Shown here: positions 3,399 to 53,255 of the stretch, in pieces
How the letters are laid out: each line of letters begins with the position of its first letter
How positions within the stretch are numbered: the first letter of the stretch is position 1
UHGV virus genome: UHGV-0038496
DNA: 64,000 bases
Direction: 5' to 3' (one strand)
DNA from: a virus
The notes under the pieces: model-generated
What the model was told of the DNA's origin: nothing
The model's input: only the letters and a program-made list of their open reading frames with translations
The model's database searches: none
Made by a program: the position numbers and the translations under genes

Positions 3399-5477
3399 TT
3401 ATGAAAGGTCTGGTGGTGTCACATCTTCTGTGTAGCTTTTAAGGGCTGTCTGCCCCATGTGAACAACAGTTGACTCTTTCGCACTGAATGTGATACTATC
3501 ATTCATAAGTTGAGGATAAGCCCATACGTACTGCTGTACTTCTGGGTAATGATACTCAGTGGTGCAGATATTACCACAGATCATTCTCCACAAAAATTCC
3601 TGATAGTTCTTCTCTGGGTCATAGCCATACACCGGAGCTAAATCTTTACCTGGTACAAACCCTGCGAGGTAGTGGATTTCGTTCCTGTTCCACCCCAAGG
3701 TTTTACGAGGATGTTCGATAGCTTCGAATGAACGTTCTATTTTCCCATTCATAACCCAATCATAGCATTCTGAACAGAAGAAGTCAAGTACTCCTGACTC
3801 TTTCTTGTACTCATCCGGCAGGTTAAGTTTTTCCATCACTGTACCAACAATGGTGGGATAGAAAACAAGGACTGTAACCTGAGCGCCAGGGAATGCTGCT
3901 TTAATTCCGGCAGAGATTGTTGCAATTCTCTGACCGAATTTTTTACGACAGAATGCGATGTACCTGTCATAAACACCACCAGTTAATGGTTTGTCAATGG
4001 TGCCCATGTCAAGTGCATACTCTCCTGTTTCCCTGTAGAACAGCTCTTTTGTGGTGTAGTCGTAAATACAAGGCTTGCGAGAGTCTGTATTGTACCACCA
4101 CCACGGTTCGCCAATCTGCATAATAACAGGAAGGTTTTTACTTTTCAAGATCTGAGCGAAGTTTTTAAAGACGCTCAGCAGGAATGTCATACCCCCTTCG
4201 ATACAAGGCGATAACAGGTAGCTGCAAGGTGTATACCCTGTCTTAGCGTAGCTATCGTCCCATTCGCGTTGAGTCCATTCCAGAGGACAGGCATCACTAT
4301 AAAGCTCCATGCTGACAGAGAACATTGCATCAGTGAATCCGTAACGAGTCAAATTGTAAGCAAAGTCATCATGCCATGCTTTGGCAGCTTTGTTCAGAGT
4401 ACCTGATCTGTCGATTTCCCATTTGTGAGTTGAGCTTCCCCATGAGTAATTATAATAGTGACTCATACCGCAATAGTGGTTGATTCTACCACGGTAGCCA
4501 AGTTTCTGGAGGTTGTAAAGAACACGCGCTGGGGAAACATTCCACATATCATCGTATGCAGTGCAAGCCCTTAAATCGTGACCTTCTACAGTCAGATCAT
4601 TAAGCTGCATGTATTTCCAGCCAGTGTCCGGCTCCAGCATATCAATGCGAAGTTCACAGTCAACATTAGTTGTGCGAACGTCTGTGCTGTTGGCAACATA
4701 ATCCTTAGGCATTAACGGGATCAGGATCTTGCGAACCTGACGAGGGTCAACTGCCACCAAGTAATTATTTTTGTCAACACCCAGACAATCCTCAAAATTG
4801 AGGTGAATATCTGCTGTGGTTTTATCAGCAGAAATGTTAGAAGCATAGTCCGACATACGGACGTAAACTATTGTACCATCAACAAGAGTGATAGTAATTG
4901 TGGCCTGACCTGGGGTTGTAAAGTCAAGAGCGTTGGTGAACTTGACCCTGAACCACAGCTTGGTATTACGCATCTCATAATGATCATCATATCCTACACC
5001 AAAATGGTCGTATGTGTCAACTGTTTCCCAGATTGCTCCAGACATACCCCCCATCGTACGTGAAGTCATTGTGACAATCACTGTGGAGTTGTCTGACTTG
5101 ATCGATGTACTCTCAGTCGGCTGGCAATTTGTTACCCAGTAGCGTGGGTGGAACATTCGTTCTTCTCGTGTTCCCCATTCAAGTCTGCTCAAATCTTCTC
5201 GTGAAATGATCGTGCATTTTGCTTGTTTGGTCCCAATTACCGTCCCCTGTGAGGGGGTATGGAACTGCATATAGAAGCTACGAGGCAGTCTGTTAGGTTT
5301 TTTATCCACAATATTAACAGGGATATCCACAAAAGCAGAATCCACTGGGATGATCGCCTTGCCTTCGACGTGAGTGTAATCACGCCCAGGCACAGCGGTA
5401 TCTGCCAGGGTGTTATACATAAATTCTGCCTGGAGTGTGGTGTAATCCCTGTAAGTTCTGAATACAGCGGTTGCCAT
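3399..5477 (-). CDS. Large tail/baseplate-associated structural protein
   Basis: 692 aa ORF in tail-fibre/baseplate block, Trp/Tyr-rich; function not recognisable. Confidence 0.5.
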   Translation of the reverse strand: MATAVFRTYRDYTTLQAEFMYNTLADTAVPGRDYTHVEGKAIIPVDSAFVDIPVNIVDKKPNRLPRSFYMQFHTPSQGTVIGTKQAKCTIISREDLSRLEWGTREERMFHPRYWVTNCQPTESTSIKSDNSTVIVTMTSRTMGGMSGAIWETVDTYDHFGVGYDDHYEMRNTKLWFRVKFTNALDFTTPGQATITITLVDGTIVYVRMSDYASNISADKTTADIHLNFEDCLGVDKNNYLVAVDPRQVRKILIPLMPKDYVANSTDVRTTNVDCELRIDMLEPDTGWKYMQLNDLTVEGHDLRACTAYDDMWNVSPARVLYNLQKLGYRGRINHYCGMSHYYNYSWGSSTHKWEIDRSGTLNKAAKAWHDDFAYNLTRYGFTDAMFSVSMELYSDACPLEWTQREWDDSYAKTGYTPCSYLLSPCIEGGMTFLLSVFKNFAQILKSKNLPVIMQIGEPWWWYNTDSRKPCIYDYTTKELFYRETGEYALDMGTIDKPLTGGVYDRYIAFCRKKFGQRIATISAGIKAAFPGAQVTVLVFYPTIVGTVMEKLNLPDEYKKESGVLDFFCSECYDWVMNGKIERSFEAIEHPRKTLGWNRNEIHYLAGFVPGKDLAPVYGYDPEKNYQEFLWRMICGNICTTEYHYPEVQQYVWAYPQLMNDSITFSAKESTVVHMGQTALKSYTEDVTPPDLS

Positions 5478-6166
5478 TAAGCCTCCGTAACGATAGTTGC
5501 GTCAACAACAATATTTTCACACCAAACAGTGGTGGAACCCCAATCAGGCCGTTCATCCGGTACATAAACCAGAGTAGCAATACCGTCTACCCCGAACTGC
5601 TCATCGTCCCAGACTGATCCAAATCCAGCAGCTGTATCATCTCCAGCAAAACCAAATGCCCTGCCCTGTGATTCTGTCAATCTCAGGTGAGTTGGCAGCG
5701 GCATCATATCAAGGATCTGATCAACTGCCTGACTAATGTCGAAGCAAGTTTTCCTGACGTTAATGTCGAATCGGAAGTTGTCCCCAGCCCATGTATCGAA
5801 ATTGTTTCTGCCCAGCAGCTGTTGTAGCGTAGAGATCACATCCTCACGCGTACCACCACGGGACAAAGATGCCTGTTGAATAATAAGTGTAGCACGATAG
5901 TCTGCATCTTGCAAGCCATTTCTTTTTATGCCAAACTGCTTACCAATCTCATCAAAATATTTACCGCTGGCATTGTTAAGTAGACGGCCTTCTGCAAGAG
6001 CAACTAACATCTCATCAACAGTCTGCAACCTTTTAAGGTAGATAGACAGGAACGTTGTCAGGTCTTCTTTCTCTCTCAGAAAATCGCCGGGGAGGTAATC
6101 CAGACCTCCCTCAACGAAATCTGGCAGAGTGTGAATGTGGTTAACATCTATTTTCTTCTCTGCCAT
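5477..6166 (-). CDS. Hypothetical baseplate-module protein
   Basis: 229 aa, start overlaps upstream stop (operon coupling). Confidence 0.5.
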   Translation of the reverse strand: MAEKKIDVNHIHTLPDFVEGGLDYLPGDFLREKEDLTTFLSIYLKRLQTVDEMLVALAEGRLLNNASGKYFDEIGKQFGIKRNGLQDADYRATLIIQQASLSRGGTREDVISTLQQLLGRNNFDTWAGDNFRFDINVRKTCFDISQAVDQILDMMPLPTHLRLTESQGRAFGFAGDDTAAGFGSVWDDEQFGVDGIATLVYVPDERPDWGSTTVWCENIVVDATIVTEA

Positions 6167-43910: not shown

Positions 43911-43986
43911 GTTGTGCGTCCTCCATTTATCCGCTTGTGGGCGAACGATAACATATTCTGATCTCGTTGTCAATACTATTTTATTC

Positions 43987-44015
43987 TTGACTCCTACAAC
44001 GAGGTGTGGTATGTT
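43987..44015 (+). promoter_or_regulatory. Sigma70-type early promoter
   Basis: TTGACT-N17-TATGTT, followed by AGGAGG Shine-Dalgarno and ATG at 44038. Confidence 0.5.
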
Positions 44016-44037
44016 TTGCACATAGGAGGAAACCACC

Positions 44038-44196
44038 ATGAGAAGAATCGTTTTCTACAGCGTTCAAACGTTCTGTGACGAAGAGAAGGTGTACATGCTC
44101 CCAATCCTGAGGGCGTACCCACAAATTCGCTGTAGCGTTCTTTTTATGACGTTTAAAGATGCATTACTCCTGATGATTGAAGCTGATAACAAGTGA
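44038..44196 (+). CDS. Small early protein (52 aa)
   Basis: ATG with AGGAGG Shine-Dalgarno 7 nt upstream; not in ORF track because under 60 aa. Confidence 0.4.
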   Translation: MRRIVFYSVQTFCDEEKVYMLPILRAYPQIRCSVLFMTFKDALLLMIEADNK

Positions 44197-44204
44197 GGTG
44201 GCAC

Positions 44205-44324
44205 ATGCGTGGCGTTGAATACGTTGTTTATCGTTACTACTATAAAGAGGCACTTCTGAACAAACATTATGATGATGCAAGGAGATTCTTCGAGCAGATG
44301 ATAAAAGCATTACGTGATGAGTAA
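44205..44324 (+). CDS. Small early protein (39 aa)
   Basis: ATG with GAGGTGG Shine-Dalgarno; Tyr-rich. Confidence 0.35.
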   Translation: MRGVEYVVYRYYYKEALLNKHYDDARRFFEQMIKALRDE

Positions 44325-44327
44325 ACA

Positions 44328-44356
44328 TTGACAGCAGGCCTTGTGCCTGCTATACT
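44328..44356 (+). promoter_or_regulatory. Sigma70 consensus early promoter
   Basis: TTGACA-N17-TATACT upstream of the 44385 gene. Confidence 0.55.
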
Positions 44357-44384
44357 CTGTTAAAAACAGAAGAAGGTAACAGAG

Positions 44385-45062
44385 ATGGCAGAACAAGAGA
44401 TCAAAGCAAGTGTACTGGAGAACTGGTTCAACAAAAACATCTGCTTTGGCAATGATGATTGCTACCGGAAGGTTGACAACCTGTTTGCTGTGTGGGTGAA
44501 AAATCCTGATGCTGTGACCAACAGGAAAGATTTCGATAAGCGAAGAATCCCTGAGGCGGGTAGTGTGTGGGCAGAAAAAAGCTGCCTGTTTCTGACCAAC
44601 ATTGATAAGGCAGTACTGAGTCATCTTGCTGACCAGAACAGAATCCAGTTCAAGTGCTACCAGATTCGTAAGCAGACAAGCTACGAAGATATGCACAGGA
44701 ACAACTGGTGCGGTGATTCCACACATGTGATCGCCATGGAAGCAGGGTTGCCGTACGACAAGAACCACAACAGGAACCGGAAGGTGGCAGAGAGTATCAA
44801 ATTCCTAGAGTCAATCGGCCTTGTGATTAGCAAACCACATGCACGGAGATTAGCGACTATTGATGAAATATCCACACACGAAGACGTGGAATATTTTCTT
44901 CTGCACCCTTCTAAAGACAGAACTTTAAGATCTGTTTTCAGCAGCAGAGCAGGTTTCCTGAAATGGGTAGAAGAAAACAGAGGTTGTGGATACAGCCAGT
45001 TACCTTACCAAGAGCATCATATTGACACGGATGTTCTCTTGTGGTATCCTTGTTACGATTAA
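44385..45062 (+). CDS. Hypothetical early protein
   Basis: 225 aa ORF directly downstream of consensus promoter. Confidence 0.5.
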   Translation: MAEQEIKASVLENWFNKNICFGNDDCYRKVDNLFAVWVKNPDAVTNRKDFDKRRIPEAGSVWAEKSCLFLTNIDKAVLSHLADQNRIQFKCYQIRKQTSYEDMHRNNWCGDSTHVIAMEAGLPYDKNHNRNRKVAESIKFLESIGLVISKPHARRLATIDEISTHEDVEYFLLHPSKDRTLRSVFSSRAGFLKWVEENRGCGYSQLPYQEHHIDTDVLLWYPCYD

Positions 45063-45079
45063 AAACAGGAGATGGGCTT

Positions 45080-45478
45080 ATGACAAATTTAGGGCAGTAC
45101 CACAAAATCTACTGGGAGATGACAGAGATAAAATACATCAGAAACAAGAAAGATGGTGGAGTAATCAGAGTAAAATCTGCACACATTTTAATCTACTCAT
45201 ACCTCCGTAGCTGTTTTGAAAAATATCTCAAAGCTATCAAGTTACGCAAAAACCAAGGTATGAAGGTTGTTCGGGCAGAGTTATGTGAGAAAGCAATGGT
45301 TGACAAATCTGTAGTCTGCAAAACTCTTAACGACCTTTCAGATGCTGGGTTGATATCTTTAATGAGTAACTCTGGTAAAAGGGGGTACGTATTCAATTTT
45401 GTAGCGGATGTTGAGTCTTTCTACAAAGCAGCAGTTGATGAGGATGGAGAGTCTATCTATGCAGTGGATACAGAGTGA
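45080..45478 (+). CDS. Putative winged-helix DNA-binding protein (candidate iteron-binding initiator/regulator)
   Basis: Start at MTNLGQYH with AGGAG Shine-Dalgarno; 132 aa; immediately followed by iteron array. Confidence 0.45.
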   Translation: MTNLGQYHKIYWEMTEIKYIRNKKDGGVIRVKSAHILIYSYLRSCFEKYLKAIKLRKNQGMKVVRAELCEKAMVDKSVVCKTLNDLSDAGLISLMSNSGKRGYVFNFVADVESFYKAAVDEDGESIYAVDTE

Positions 45479-45515
45479 TTATGACTGGTGCATTTTTGGC
45501 GGTTATAACCTCTCA

Positions 45516-45646
45516 TCAGTATGGAAACCATACCGTTTATCGGTATGGAAACCATTCATTATCGGTATGGAAACCGAAGAAAAAAGTGCGGTTTTATTTT
45601 TAAGAATATACCGATAAGAGGCGGTTTTCATACCAATAAGAGGTGG
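45516..45646. repeat. Iteron array: three direct 14-bp repeats plus inverted copy and a second duplicated motif
   Basis: CAGTATGGAAACCA, CGGTATGGAAACCA, CGGTATGGAAACCG at about 23-25 bp spacing; inverted TTTTCATACC; CCGATAAGAGGCGG / CCAATAAGAGGTGG. Confidence 0.6.
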
Positions 45647-45659
45647 AAATCGCCTAAAA

Positions 45660-46030
45660 ACTCCAGAATTATCTTTATAAATCCTAGGGTTAAGTGCTGA
45701 CAGATCAGATCAGATCAGGGATAGTAACTTCGTTAGCATTCCCTCTAACTCGTTACTATGTAGTACTAAGCTCGTACTCTCGCTTACTACCGTAAGCTCG
45801 GTACTCACTAAGTACTACCATAAGCAATGTCTTGCTTAATTAATTTATCAATTAATTTTATCAGTACAAAATCAATCAATAAATTAATTAATCAATCCAT
45901 TGATACCACTAAGTTCGTTCCTCACTAAGTGGTATACATGCTGATAGCATTCCCTCTATCAGATGATACTAAGTTCACACTTCGTATCCACTCGTGTTCA
46001 CTAAGTATCATTGATCCATTATTGCTCAAA
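45660..46030. repeat. AT-rich repeat field (candidate origin/regulatory region)
   Basis: Multiple CACTAAGT copies, duplicated AGCATTCCCTCTA (near 45725 and 45945), TTAATTAAT palindromes, DnaA-box-like GTATCCACT; no credible ORF. Confidence 0.4.
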
Positions 46031-46391
46031 TTTATTTTTTCTTTTCCCACAAATATGGCGCTCCTTTTACCGCTCGCTCGCGCTCGGCGGGTCGCGCCTG
46101 ATCATCGTCTGCTATCAACAAGTGGGCCTGTGGCAACAGAGCTGCCTGAGTTGTGTGGGAAGATCACCGACCGTAAGGGAGGTGCTAATGTGGGGATGAC
46201 GGTGAAAAGCGAAGCTGCCGAGAGGAACCGTCGAATTGTCTGCGCCGCCGCTTCAACCATACCCAGATACCAGAAATCAGTTTTGAGGCCTCTGGTAGCT
46301 TCTGTGGTTAGCTAATAGTGCCTGATGGCTACAGTTGCATTACTAAACTATCAACATCGTTACAGAGCGTTTGAGAGCGTTTAAATTAGTA

Positions 46392-46420
46392 TTGACAGCA
46401 GATGAAAATTATGTTATTGT
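46392..46420 (+). promoter_or_regulatory. Sigma70-type promoter
   Basis: TTGACA-N17-TATTGT upstream of the 46462 gene. Confidence 0.45.
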
Positions 46421-46461
46421 TCGCCTACTGGTAAAAGTATGCATGAGAAGAGAGGTGCTAC

Positions 46462-46935
46462 ATGCAAGACGGTCGTAAAATGCGTGAAGAGAAAATGCTG
46501 ATCGTTCAGCTTATCCCTAAACCGTTGTGGGGAGTAGCAGGACGTGAAGCTATTGGTCGTAGCTTGTGGGATAAAGCTCGTAAACGCTGCTATAAAGAAG
46601 CAGAGTACAGATGCGAAGTCTGCGGTGGTAAAGGGCCTAAACACCCTGTGGAAGCCCATGAGTTGTATCTGTTTGAAGATCACAAGATCACCTGTGTGGG
46701 GCTGATCGCATTATGCCCAGACTGCCATATGAGCGTGCATCCTGGACGCTGCAACTGCCTCGGCAGAGATGTTTACCTCAAGGCAAGAAAGCATTTTGCT
46801 GACGTAAACTGGTTGACAGAACAGCAGGCACAGGAGTATTATGAAGAGTGTTTCGAAGAGTGGAGAGAACTAAGCAAGATCAAGATCTGGGAAACTGATT
46901 TTTCATGGTTGGAGAATTACGCAAAAGGTAACTAA
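46462..46935 (+). CDS. Small cysteine/histidine-rich protein (possible HNH-like zinc-binding nuclease)
   Basis: 157 aa; CEVCGG...HPVEAHE...CPDCH pattern; AGAGAGG Shine-Dalgarno. Confidence 0.4.
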   Translation: MQDGRKMREEKMLIVQLIPKPLWGVAGREAIGRSLWDKARKRCYKEAEYRCEVCGGKGPKHPVEAHELYLFEDHKITCVGLIALCPDCHMSVHPGRCNCLGRDVYLKARKHFADVNWLTEQQAQEYYEECFEEWRELSKIKIWETDFSWLENYAKGN

Positions 46936-46936
46936 G

Positions 46937-47215
46937 ATGAAACTGAAAGATCTCGAAGGAGACTTCGTGTTCGGTGGACAATTCGCTGCGCTGAAGGGCA
47001 TTGTTCAGGATATTGAACACAAGTTTGATGAAAAATTGTACTTTGATACCTGTGTGGTGAATGGTAGTAACTGGCGTAATGTCTGTGTAGGCCTGCACGG
47101 TGATCGTAACTTGATCAACCTTGTGGTGATCCGATTTATCAGCTGGCAACATATGAATGTACGTTACGATGATTGCCACTTGTTAGTTTACCCTGTTGAG
47201 GAGTTACCGGAATGA
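46937..47215 (+). CDS. Hypothetical early protein
   Basis: 92 aa, tightly packed operon. Confidence 0.4.
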   Translation: MKLKDLEGDFVFGGQFAALKGIVQDIEHKFDEKLYFDTCVVNGSNWRNVCVGLHGDRNLINLVVIRFISWQHMNVRYDDCHLLVYPVEELPE

Positions 47216-47481
47216 AATTTGAACTGATTAAACCGATTGAAGCACACCAGTTTGATGGATCAAGCACAAGCGTGTCTGAATTGCAACACTGGCATGATAC
47301 TGAGGTGTTTGTTCGTCATGCTGTACGGACGAGAGATATCCGACCACAAGCCCTCATCTATGACGATTTTGGTGGGTATGTCCTCCATCGTGGTGACTGG
47401 TTGGTGAATTTCTTCGGGGATTTTTTGGTGATGAGCGATGAATCGATGCACCAGATATTCAAGGAGGTGGAAGATGCCTAA
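47212..47481 (+). CDS. Hypothetical early protein
   Basis: 89 aa, start overlaps upstream stop. Confidence 0.4.
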   Translation: MKFELIKPIEAHQFDGSSTSVSELQHWHDTEVFVRHAVRTRDIRPQALIYDDFGGYVLHRGDWLVNFFGDFLVMSDESMHQIFKEVEDA

Positions 47482-47767
47482 GGCAAAACAGCCGAAGAAA
47501 GCGCCTTTTGATAAAACAGCTTTTGTGTTTGATACCCCGCTCGATGATATTATTGCTGGTATGCAGAAGCTGTACCGAAAAGCAGAAGAGGAGAAGCTGA
47601 CAGAGAGTGAGCTGTATTGGCTTGGCTGGTGGGAACTAAATCTTCCGATAGCACAAGCCTACGGTCTGAAAACAGTCAAAACATGTGCCCAGGAGAACGC
47701 TGCTCTCGATATCTACCACAAACGCCGCAGAGCTACGAAGAAAGTGGCAAGGAAATCTGCAAAATAG
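47474..47767 (+). CDS. Hypothetical early protein
   Basis: Start at MPKAKQPKK with AAGGAGGTGG Shine-Dalgarno; basic termini. Confidence 0.45.
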   Translation: MPKAKQPKKAPFDKTAFVFDTPLDDIIAGMQKLYRKAEEEKLTESELYWLGWWELNLPIAQAYGLKTVKTCAQENAALDIYHKRRRATKKVARKSAK

Positions 47768-52115: not shown

Positions 52116-53255
52116 TTGAGAGACTACCCATTACTTACCTCTATTGAGGAGTTAAAAGATCTTCTTGAACCTGATGCTAAAATCTACTACGACTTTGATC
52201 AGGTGGCTTATCAGGCTGCTGCAAGCTGTGAGAAACGCACCATCGAGGTCACTCACAAAGCGTCAGGACACAAGAAAGAGTTCAAGACCAGAACAGAGTT
52301 CTGGGGCAGACAGAAAAAAGCTGTAGGTGGTTGGCTGAAAGCTGAGAATGCTAACCGTGAAGCACGTTGCAAGAAAGCTGGTAAAGAGTTCGTACCCTGG
52401 ACCCGCGATGATTTTGATGTGCTGGATATACAGACACCTGAGCCTGTTGAGAATTGCCTCCACACACTGAAATGCAAAGCTAACGCAGTGCTCAACCACC
52501 TCGGTATCCCAGTTGAAAGATGTGTTGGCGTGCTCGGTGGGGAAGGGAACTTCCGTCTGGATCTCCCTATGCCGGAACAGTACAAGGCCAACAGGGCTGA
52601 CATGCTGCGACCCCTGATGCTGCCGGATGCACGTAGATACCTGCGAGAGCACTTCAACGCACAAGTGATCGACGGTATGGAAGCCGATGACTGGTTGGCA
52701 ATCCAGCAGTATTCCGGTTGGCTACATTACCAACAGACAGGTAAATTCGACAAACTGGTGATCAGTATCGATAAAGATCAACGCCAGACTCCTGGCCTGC
52801 TGTTTGATCCGATGCGTAATGACAAAGGTGATTTTGTTCGTGAAACACCGATGCTGATCGACGATTCCATAGGCCACATCTTCATGAAGCCGAACGGGGA
52901 TGTTGGTGGCTGGGGCCAGATGTTCTTCCATTACCAAATGTTGTGTGGGGATACCGCTGATAACATCAAACCCTATCAGGGGTTGATTGCTAAAGGCCGT
53001 TTTGGTGATGCTTCTGCATTCCAGCTGTTATCCGTATGCGAGAGTGAACTGGAGCTGTGGGAAGCAACGATCCAGCAGTATAAAGAGTGGTTCCCAGATG
53101 GGCGGGTGAAATACACCGACTTCAACGGCATTGATCGGGACATTTCGGTTGGTCAGTGGATGGGCGTTATTTTCGATGCTGTCTATATGAAGCGTGTTTT
53201 CAATGACAAAACTTCTTTATCTTCGACTTTACGTCGAGTGGGGATTATCAAATGA
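52116..53255 (+). CDS. 5'-3' exonuclease / flap endonuclease (FEN/RNase H-like)
   Basis: 379 aa; VIDGMEADDWLAI (xEADD motif) and CGDTADNI (GDxxDNIPG-like). Confidence 0.65.
   Translation: MRDYPLLTSIEELKDLLEPDAKIYYDFDQVAYQAAASCEKRTIEVTHKASGHKKEFKTRTEFWGRQKKAVGGWLKAENANREARCKKAGKEFVPWTRDDFDVLDIQTPEPVENCLHTLKCKANAVLNHLGIPVERCVGVLGGEGNFRLDLPMPEQYKANRADMLRPLMLPDARRYLREHFNAQVIDGMEADDWLAIQQYSGWLHYQQTGKFDKLVISIDKDQRQTPGLLFDPMRNDKGDFVRETPMLIDDSIGHIFMKPNGDVGGWGQMFFHYQMLCGDTADNIKPYQGLIAKGRFGDASAFQLLSVCESELELWEATIQQYKEWFPDGRVKYTDFNGIDRDISVGQWMGVIFDAVYMKRVFNDKTSLSSTLRRVGIIK

Follow-up and report, generated by a model that had tools for sequence, protein, structure and literature searches.

In the viral genome UHGV-0038496, of which we analysed a stretch of 64,000 nucleotides (the full 64-kb stretch is called the window below), a GC-rich island of 271 nt (positions 46050–46320) lies between a field of repeats and the promoter of an HNH gene. 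What is this island, and to which of its neighbours does it belong? A reading made from the sequence alone (the sequence-only reading) had suggested a structured non-coding RNA, a horizontally acquired fragment such as captured host DNA, or a small moron gene. We found the island to be non-coding, conserved, furnished with co-varying stems and syntenic with an origin-like module, which comprises a small initiator-like gene, iterons and an AT-rich repeat field. The reading that we favour, tentatively and at slightly less than even confidence, is that it would serve as a cis-acting sense-strand RNA and as a part of this module in the rV5-type phages.

Base composition of the island

By exact count, the G+C content of the island is 55.4%, against a window mean of 44.4% (standard deviation of 271-nt segments, 3.3%) and against flanks of 34.6–35.6% on the left (45479/45700–46049) and 38.3% on the right (46321–46461). 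Just 0.06% of the 271-nt segments of the window reach this value, the contrast between the island and its flanks is also in the top 0.06%, and the window-wide maximum for 271 nt (56.5%) starts at 46057. The GC-rich island that had been claimed is therefore real, the G+C content being far from uniform, and both sequence strings quoted for it are present. The only other stretch of the window with so high a G+C content, 52437–52726, lies inside an open reading frame (ORF) of 379 aa (52116–53255, +) and is probably plain coding composition.

The island does not code for protein and is not host DNA

Seven further variants of the island (L002, L003, L006, L007, L019, L020 and L122), all from metagenomic relatives, were found via neighbouring proteins and DNA motifs. 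Relative to the window they carry 1-nt indels plus insertions of 47 to ~113 nt. ORFs of 86–128 aa are present on the + strand of the island, as had been claimed, and one of 52 aa on the − strand. The accompanying statement that the frames lack a Shine–Dalgarno (SD) sequence is wrong for one frame: the SD-like AAGGGAGGTG (46175–46184) stands 3 nt ahead of ATG 46188 and 5 nt ahead of GTG 46190, the start of a 41-codon frame.

The existence of these frames, the strong SD of the 41-codon frame, which runs uninterrupted in the window and five relatives (L006, L007, L019, L020 and L122), and a composition unlike that of the flanks are the points in favour of a small protein-coding gene (moron) or of captured host DNA. 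Against a gene, relatives have these frames interrupted or displaced, or lack them altogether. At the place of the window's ATG for the 86-aa frame they read ATAGGG, and the 41-codon frame is truncated in L002 and absent in L003, the window's own copy being partly in a different reading frame from that of the five relatives. Nor are the substitutions biased to third positions. Among six same-register sequences, the variable columns of the 41-codon frame number 7/8/7 at codon positions 1/2/3 and 15 of the 18 variable codons change the amino acid; in the adjacent 132-aa gene, taken as a coding control, the identity to L002 is 88.6/92.4/77.3% by codon position. The near-perfect SD is kept in all eight variants of the window's clade, 5–7 nt before AUG/UUG-UGG, and the ORF behind it has 3, 5, 27 or 41 codons depending on the variant.

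Strong protein homology, which the sequence-only reading had named as evidence against a non-coding nature, was looked for in the island frames and none was significant: there was no match in Pfam, none by tblastn against 50,697 phage records, and the best PHROG (phrog_33961) had E = 0.08. The gene callers of public metagenome assemblies called no gene in the spacer with the island. We judged the island non-coding because its ORFs are not conserved, codon periodicity is lacking and no protein family matches, and a small moron gene was rejected.

As for host DNA, blastn of the island (distant mode, word size 11, E ≤ 1) found no match in 5,426 complete genomes of E. coli or in 72,556 PLSDB plasmids. 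The segment 45480–46460, searched in near and distant modes, matched no phage outside the clade. Exact-motif scans gave 81 chance-level matches without extended similarity among the genomes of 185,579 species, only same-clade or chance matches among viral contigs, and four more contigs in metagenomes, all of the same clade. The island is instead conserved vertically with its neighbours in two phage clades. The gene and host-fragment readings are thus largely refuted already, and we consider them very improbable; of the earlier suggestions, these two were wrong and that of a structured non-coding element was partly right.

A conserved core with co-varying stems

The island consists of two parts, a GC clamp that is specific to one origin type (46057–46098) and a core of ~210 nt (46122–46334) that is common to all relatives. 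Its features are as follows (MFE, minimum free energy).

46057–46098, + strand: GC clamp, an imperfect nested hairpin GGCGC..CCGC..GCGG..GCGCC, directly after a T-rich run
46122–46145, + strand: hairpin H_a, GTGG-G-CCTGT[GGCA]ACAGA-G-CTGC, nine pairs, 96.8% of cells paired
46146–46159, + strand: conserved linker CTGAGTTGTGTGGG, a hot-spot for extra hairpin modules in relatives
46165–46184, + strand: hairpin H_b, CACC-GA-CC[GTAA]GG-GA-GGTG, with its 3′ arm within the SD-like sequence, followed by ATG-TGG (46188–46193)
46198–46232, + strand: three-way junction H_c, GACGGT-GAAA-AGC[GAA]GCT-G-CC[GAGA]GG-A-ACCGTC, found in the MFE and centroid folds
46238–46258, + strand: GC-rich segment GTCTGCGCCGCCGCTTCAACC, with nearly invariant columns
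46269–46296, + strand: hairpin H_d, ACCAGA..TCTGGT, G-U-rich, 95–98% of cells paired (together with H_f)
46302–46334, + strand: hairpin H_f, G-U-rich, 95–98% of cells paired (together with H_d)

The within-clade structure was drawn by hand and compared with shuffles (n = 500) and with slid alignments. We observed that 95.7% of its cells pair, against 26–53% in the slid controls, and that it holds 6 two-sided pair changes, against 1.5 ± 1.0 in the shuffles (0/500). The best-supported structural feature is the three-way junction H_c, in which the loop of the small hairpin stays GNRA (GAGA, GGAA, GGGA or GTAA). L003 has a divergent replacement of the whole H_b–H_c segment, where both hairpins are kept with other stems (CTGCC/GGCAG; CCGGA/TCCGG), so that CACC/GGTG of H_b is exchanged in a compensatory way for CTGCC/GGCAG. 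The closing pair of H_b changes from C-G to T-A in five sequences and its loop from GTAA to GAGA in L002; all of its cells pair, and the centroid fold contains it in each of the five sequences examined. The window and L002 have G-U/U-G as the outer pairs of H_a, where the relatives with the second origin type (type B, described below) have Watson–Crick pairs, and the loop GGCA reads GACA in L003. Variation in H_d and H_f is nearly all one-sided (G-C to G-U), and these two hairpins are less well supported than H_b and H_c.

The linker between H_a and H_b holds from 0 to ~4 extra hairpins. It has no insert in the window, L007 and L019, one of 47 nt in L002, ~94 nt in L006 and L020, ~113 nt in L003 and a different, two-hairpin insert in L122. 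The inserted modules are always self-contained, perfect or near-perfect hairpins, each followed by (C)TGTGTGGG, and UGUGGG recurs behind every module. One of them, GGAGAC[GAAT]GTCYCC, is common to L122 and L003 despite their different origin types; hairpin modules are shuffled between genomes that differ in origin type.

Side observations on the TGTGGG motif are that 8 of its 30 + strand copies in the window fall within 2.8 kb (43936–46700), and that TGTGTGGG has 6 copies on the + strand and 0 on the − strand. The enrichment may be due to chance, most copies outside the island being in coding sequence (Val/Leu-Trp codons).

The GC clamp is present only with the origin type of the window (window, L002 and L003). 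L006, L007, L019, L020 and L122 lack it, and their homology to the window begins only at ~46124. The wider segment 46056–46123 has a G+C content of 61.8%, and the clamp is not unusually stable (DNA z-score +0.45). We take the island to be under constraint; it is 88.5% identical between the window and L002, against 77.3% at third codon positions of the neighbouring 132-aa gene.

A homologous element in V18 and other cultured Vequintavirus phages

The window is a distant relative of the rV5-like E. coli phages (Vequintavirinae), with ~73% identity in patches. Outside the clade, a covariance model of the central 105 nt, which cover the H_b–H_c domain (model R1), detects a single additional copy, that of E. 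coli phage V18 (19.4 bits, E ~0.002–0.008), and scores 24.7 bits in the sister of V18, typing phage 14. The V18 copy is at the syntenic spot, in a gap of 640 nt after gp203. On the coding strand of V18, gp203 is followed by three CTGTCCGTSATACGGACAC iterons, an AT-rich stretch with TACTAAGTAC repeats, a GC clamp and the core. The core itself reads GCAGGTCTGT...TGTGTGGG, ATGTGG and the junction; behind it come CGTTACAAAGCG and the next gene (gp204). The TACTAAGTAC-type repeats occupy the place of the ACTAAGT field of the window, and the clamp, GGCCC..GGCA-CTCGC..GCGAG-TGCC..GGGCC, is analogous to that of the window.

The V18 junction is ACCGAC-GAAA-GCT[TGCC]AGC-G-CC[GTAA]GG-A-GTCGGT. Between the clades the stems of H_c are fully re-written, and the junction residues and the CC[GNRA]GG hairpin are kept. 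H_b is not conserved as such in V18, which retains AUGUGG but without an SD. When each sequence was taken alone, the junction was the MFE and centroid fold in both the window and V18. In the two-clade alignment A7, 94.9% of cells pair (76.8 ± 2.0 in shuffles, 20–54% in slid controls), and 11 of 17 pairs have two-sided changes against 7.2 ± 1.2 in shuffles (0/500). The GTCTGCGCCGCCGCTTCAACC segment could, tentatively, be the 3′ partner of TGTGG(G) in a helix that would close the domain: GUGG/CCGC pairing is seen in the MFE folds of the window and L003, and an analogous GUGGGAG/CUCCCGC in V18. Within neither clade does this helix show covariation.

The V18-type region is present at full length and 88–100% identity in all 119 GenBank Vequintavirus records, which annotate it solely as ‘repeat_region’ (the iterons) or as small hypothetical coding sequences (CDSs). 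Several rV5-like genomes (L124–L127, and GenBank records such as MZ501048 and KP869112) place 1–3 small ‘hypothetical protein’ CDSs in the 640-nt iteron/island gap, for example at 651–794 of L126. The small CDSs that overlap the iterons in rV5-like records are probably spurious. In the rV5 paper the region is drawn as a ‘non-coding’ box, and a skew analysis did not define an origin (PMC3606486). We found no relevant transcriptome or non-coding RNA work in the literature on rV5-like phages. It was also noticed that in 18 GenBank records of ‘Campylobacter phage’ (C. jejuni; MG0656xx) this region and gp203 are 93–99% identical to those of E. coli rV5-like phages; the C. jejuni host labels look doubtful.

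The island goes with the origin-like module, not with the HNH gene

The neighbourhood of the island is laid out as follows (RBS, ribosome-binding site).

44328, + strand: sigma-70-like promoter ahead of the 225-aa ORF
44385–45062, + strand: ORF of 225 aa, upstream of the winged helix–turn–helix (wHTH) gene
45080–45478, + strand: 132-aa winged-helix, initiator-like protein, start of the origin-like module
45508–45646, no strand: iterons, three direct copies of TATCGGTATGGAAACC and inverted copies ATACCGATAAGAGGCGG / ATACCAATAAGAGGTGG (repeat families D1, D5 and I2)
45760–46011, no strand: repeat field, ACTAAGT-based inverted repeats I1, I6, I7 and I10 that flank an AT-rich palindrome (45825–45902)
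46362–46461, + strand: right boundary, with tandem AGAGCGTTT repeats, a sigma-70-like promoter and the RBS of the HNH gene
46392–46420, + strand: HNH-gene promoter, TTGACA-17-TATTGT
46462–46935, + strand: HNH gene, 157 aa, phrog_5200 (E = 5e-53)

Between the 132-aa ORF and the HNH gene, 983 nt are gene-free and hold, in order, the iterons, the ACTAAGT inverted-repeat field around the AT-rich palindrome and the GC island. Both clades thus have the same order of parts: a small wHTH initiator-like gene, iterons, an AT-rich repeat field, a GC island and the next gene. The V18 gp203 protein (116 aa) belongs to phrog_12838, ‘replication initiation protein’ (E = 3e-80). The 132-aa protein of the window is weakly related to it (BLASTP, 22% identity, E = 0.006); its top PHROG is phrog_9088, which gp203 also matches, and its Pfam matches, all weak, are to DUF6945, MarR_2 and the helix–turn–helix of Fe_dep_repress.

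Phages that are otherwise near-identical carry two unrelated origin-like modules (44385–46124 in the window; 748–2070 in L006, and in L007 and L122). Type A, that of the window, has the separate 132-aa gene and GGAAACC iterons. Type B, found in L006, L007, L019, L020 and L122, lacks the 132-aa gene and has four TAAGGGCCAAATAATGGCCC repeats, a GATC-rich AT region and an AT palindrome, together with a 224-aa protein that has a different C-terminal third. The right-hand junction of this swap is at ~46124 of the window, and the core of the island is kept although the entire left module is exchanged. Since the core persists while initiator and iterons change, its partner is probably something common to these phages or their host, and not the initiator.

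The HNH gene behaves differently. Its homologues of 58–73% identity in related phages directly follow other genes, and remote ones adjoin ORFs or tRNAs; over the whole range of 37–73% identity no such spacer precedes them. V18, in turn, has the element beside gp204, without this HNH gene. An RNA partner of the HNH nuclease (HEARO/IscB- or IshB-like) was rejected on these two grounds. Because the gene order repeats in V18, the core survives the module swap and the HNH homologues lack the spacer, we regard the island as part of the origin-like module, not of the HNH locus downstream. In unrelated phages (L009 and L010, upstream of 2501), remote phrog_5200 HNH homologues stand directly after what looks by eye like a tRNA gene.

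Within the module, iterons and protein change together. L002 and L003 (4420–4560), the 132-aa proteins of which are 81–83% identical to that of the window, carry CAGTACGGAAACC as the iteron in place of TATCGGTATGGAAACC; the contrast that tracks the wHTH protein is GGTATGGAAACC versus AGTACGGAAACC. This joint change suggests that the 132-aa wHTH protein may bind the iterons. The repeat field has a G+C content of 32–34% and is presumed to be the unwinding region; 5 of the 9 ACTAAGT copies of the window are in 45807–46006; all five are on the + strand and form arms of three inverted repeats. An initiator-like gene that adjoins repeats and an AT-rich palindrome is the architecture of an iteron-type origin, the protein of the window being only a weak relative of its V18 counterpart.

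At the right boundary, the AGAGCGTTT-G-AGAGCGTTT tandem (46362–46381), ~10 nt upstream of the −35 element of the HNH promoter, is kept in all relatives and looks like the operator of a regulator. CGTTACARAGCG, also in 46362–46461, recurs in V18 upstream of its next gene. The gene after the HNH gene begins 2 nt past the HNH stop codon. On the left, the 225-aa ORF had no tblastn match among GenBank phages and was found in IMG/VR in the same clade only. A stretch of 5,674 nt of the window is 100% identical to metagenome contig ENA ERZ27287477 k141_617802, which has 140,706 nt. In one related phage, L115 (ENA ERZ28663349), positions 3786–5489 encode an ATP-dependent DNA ligase of >785 aa with intein-splicing and LAGLIDADG matches; in its sister contigs the ligase has 421 aa.

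Sense-strand RNA or single-stranded DNA

Several observations point to the + strand and to RNA. The G(N)NA tetraloops of the three hairpins (GGCA/GACA; GTAA/GAGA; GAGA/GGAA/GGGA/GTAA) exist on the + strand only, and 34 of the 322 cells of the within-clade structure are G-U pairs, which would be A-C mismatches on the opposite strand. In phage Aya, an A-U pair at the base of the junction helix is changed to G-U. The consensus scan found no sigma-70-like promoter or terminator between gp203 and gp204 of V18, and the island should therefore lie in a sense-strand transcription unit there. From these points we infer that the active form is RNA. An antisense RNA from a weak promoter, TTTACC-16-CATAAT (46435–46408), to the GC clamp was not adopted, as loops and the G-U pattern favour the + strand; an antisense RNA ending at the GC clamp would be possible for the origin type of the window only.

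If the island acts as a cis-acting sense-strand RNA, a transcript from the initiator gene would run across the iterons and the AT-rich region and then across the island. The folded junction domain would offer a docking site to a partner that both clades have conserved, be it a component of the phage replisome or a host factor; the initiator would not be this partner and would co-evolve with the iterons instead. In this manner the island could tie initiation to transcription across the origin, for instance if a primer or an R-loop is processed, or helicase/primase recruited, there. A more far-reaching version, which we regard as unlikely, is that the island would represent a new class of origin-associated modular RNA, with a conserved three-way junction and swapped hairpins, that arises when the origin is transcribed and is required for initiation by an RNA II-like logic, the RNA being a primer precursor, an R-loop organiser or a replisome recruiter.

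Known RNA families gave no match. An Rfam search, which the sequence-only reading had proposed, was run (Rfam 15, cmscan, E ≤ 10) on 44500–47500 of the window, on L003, L006 and L007 and on 4800–5700 of V18, and no family was found on the island; the families covered include riboswitches, ribozymes, group I and II introns, HEARO, phage pRNA, tmRNA and 6S. The sole match to touch the 5′ end of the island in V18 was rli43 (5200–5474), with 27.9 bits against a gathering score of 100 and mostly over the AT-rich/iteron region. ARAGORN detected no tRNA or tmRNA at the island. A group I intron was rejected, there being no exons (the left flank is the non-coding repeat field) and no Intron_gpI match. 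So was a hammerhead: V18 has CUGAUG and GAAA strings, but its junction strands are 4/1/1 nt against the required 7/3/1, and Rfam gave no match. Readings of the GGA, CUGCC..GGCAG and TGTGGG motifs as a CsrA sponge, a CRISPR-repeat mimic or DnaA boxes had no consistent support across the variants.

Several points weigh against the RNA interpretation and have to be set beside it. Scans with the sigma-70 promoter and canonical terminator consensus, which cover only these two types of signal, found neither a promoter just upstream of the island nor a terminator at its end in the window, L003, L006 or V18; the island is therefore not shown to be a discrete RNA. The structured non-coding RNA of the sequence-only reading accordingly stands as far as a non-coding, conserved element with co-varying stems is concerned, and falls short in having neither promoter and terminator of its own nor an Rfam family. 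The hairpins described there are likewise present as geometry, but their folding energy does not exceed that of dinucleotide shuffles: the z-score of 46040–46330 is +0.58 on the + strand and −0.36 on the − strand, and that of the core (46116–46345) is ~0 with RNA or DNA parameters. Folding beats shuffles only in the island of V18 (z = −2.66) and in L003 (z = −3.3). Composition alone would give such hairpins, as the folding energy of the window is no better than that of shuffles, and the case for structure therefore rests on comparison and not on thermodynamics. That comparison involves two clades with little internal diversity, and alignment A7 was fitted to the model, which inflates its pair counts and favours the structure. 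Only 1 of the 158 cells of the helices with two-sided covariation is G-U, which is low for RNA and suits DNA pairing. Also, we infer that the module is a replication origin from its sequence architecture and a PHROG name. G(N)NA loops stabilise DNA hairpins as well (PMC13037366). The data are about equally compatible with a function as single-stranded DNA (ssDNA) at the origin-like region next to the island.

Weighing the alternatives

Under the ssDNA alternative, the AT-rich region would melt, a helicase would move to the right and the + strand, as the lagging-strand template of the rightward fork from the AT-rich region, would fold into a priming site or a loading site for helicase/primase. 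In each of the three origin types observed, the AT-rich repeat field directly adjoins the island, which is kept while initiator and iterons are exchanged, as expected of an element whose partner is the common replisome. The near absence of G-U from the co-varying helices speaks in the same direction, as does the junction, which is the MFE fold with DNA parameters in both clades. Mini-hairpin DNA is reported to have the consensus GCGNAGC / GCGNNAGC / CC..GG stems at the priming origins of G4, St-1 and alpha3 and at RSF1010 ssiA (PMC13037366). In the window, GCGAAGC (46209–46215) and CCGAGAGG match or resemble this consensus, but the motifs are not conserved: the former is GCTAAGC in L002 and L006, and both V18 copies are lost in phage Aya. 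Several helices, moreover, need a large number of G-T pairs, a weak kind of pair in DNA, and no similarity to a known single-strand initiation (ssi) sequence was established. To our knowledge, ssi-type signals are documented for ssDNA phages and plasmids and not for large lytic myoviruses with their own primase-helicase, and we know of no ssi site with a variable number of accessory hairpins. All in all we regard this alternative as rather unlikely, though it ranks next after the sense-strand RNA.

Less probable, in our opinion, is an element of gene expression. It could be a translation-sensitive leader, in which a ribosome that reads a mini-ORF (AUG-UGG behind the strong SD) would melt the 5′ arm of the junction, or an RNA processing, stability or anti-Rho element by which the polymerase or the mRNA would survive an untranslated stretch of 640–980 nt. 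Long untranslated RNA is normally exposed to Rho (polarity), and in V18, which lacks a sigma-70-like promoter between gp203 and gp204, the downstream genes would need read-through of such a region. H_b hides half of the SD of the eight window-clade variants, the 5′ arm of H_c would be covered by a ribosome that translates any of the ORFs of 3–41 codons, and V18 keeps AUGUGG directly before its junction. Against this, V18 has no SD, no alternative terminator/antiterminator structure was found, and no leader, riboswitch or antitermination family of Rfam matches. What lies downstream is not the same gene in the two clades: it is gp204 in V18, and in the window it is the HNH gene, which has a conserved promoter of its own. 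Control of the next gene is for that reason unlikely as the conserved role. Finally, the island could have no function at all and be the decaying start of a former gene with palindromic insertions, conserved only by close kinship. The relatives within each clade are indeed close (77–99% identity), the folding energy is not exceptional, and SD plus ATG resembles the RBS of the HNH gene: AAGGGAGGTGCTA at 46175 and AAGAGAGGTGCTA at 46448 are 92% alike (repeat D10). But the compensatory changes exceed both the shuffled and the slid controls, the divergent segment of L003 and the very distant V18 clade keep the junction with different stems, the island is more conserved than the neighbouring third codon positions, and the V18-type region is full-length in every one of the 119 records. 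Absence of function is hence improbable.

Significance and comparison with known systems

The rV5-like phages (Vequintavirinae) are widely used for biocontrol of E. coli O157 and are represented by more than 100 genomes. For these phages, which have no defined origin, the present data provide one candidate origin module and, within it, one conserved and unannotated structured element. As the element also exists in cultured phages (rV5, V18 and other E. coli Vequintavirus isolates in GenBank), it is directly testable. It explains the recurrent ‘non-coding’ gap in their annotation and speaks against the small hypothetical CDSs placed there. Should it prove to act as RNA, an Rfam family of its own would be justified; should ssDNA be the active form, single-strand initiation signals would be extended to large double-stranded DNA (dsDNA) phages. 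Were the RNA II-like version true, such logic would operate in a large lytic myovirus whose replication otherwise relies on an initiator that binds iterons.

Among known elements, HEARO and the omega-RNA of IscB are similar in being structured elements of 200–300 nt located 5′ of an ORF with an HNH domain, on the same strand. They differ from the island in that it has no Rfam match, that its HNH protein has only 157 aa and belongs to phrog_5200 and not to the IscB type (RuvC+HNH), that a promoter separates element and ORF, and that the HNH homologues elsewhere lack the element.

Plasmid R1 has a single-strand initiation signal, the G-site, downstream of oriR. With such ssi signals (G4/St-1/alpha3, RSF1010 ssiA/ssiB and the R1 G-site) the island shares a cluster of hairpins on one strand beside an origin, and also G(N)NA or mini-hairpin loops, including an exact GCGAAGC (PMC13037366). 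Unlike theirs, its mini-hairpin motifs vary among relatives and many of its predicted pairs are G-T; its carrier is a dsDNA myovirus of 140 kb, and no sequence similarity is established.

Transcripts are linked to origins in ColE1 (RNA II), in pAMbeta1, where the repE transcript runs into the origin downstream of rep, and in the T4/T7 origins that combine a promoter with an unwinding element. The likeness lies in the initiator gene directly before the origin-like region, on the same strand and with no terminator between, so that the rep transcript should cross the iterons, the AT-rich region and the island. In contrast to ColE1 RNA II, the structured part here is downstream of the AT-rich region and not upstream, and no RNA–DNA junction, RNase H site or promoter dependence is known for the island.

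The lambda ori and the oriV of RK2 are built of an initiator gene, iterons, an AT-rich unwinding region and a GC-rich segment or palindrome. The module described here has the same order of parts, with iterons that change together with the protein. Its GC part, at ~280 nt, is far longer than the GC-rich stretches of those origins, and it adds co-varying stems, a three-way junction and variable hairpin modules to a region that is called an origin from its sequence only. In sum, the island is a new and so far unannotated structured motif, clade-wide in its occurrence, at a candidate origin of the rV5-like phages.

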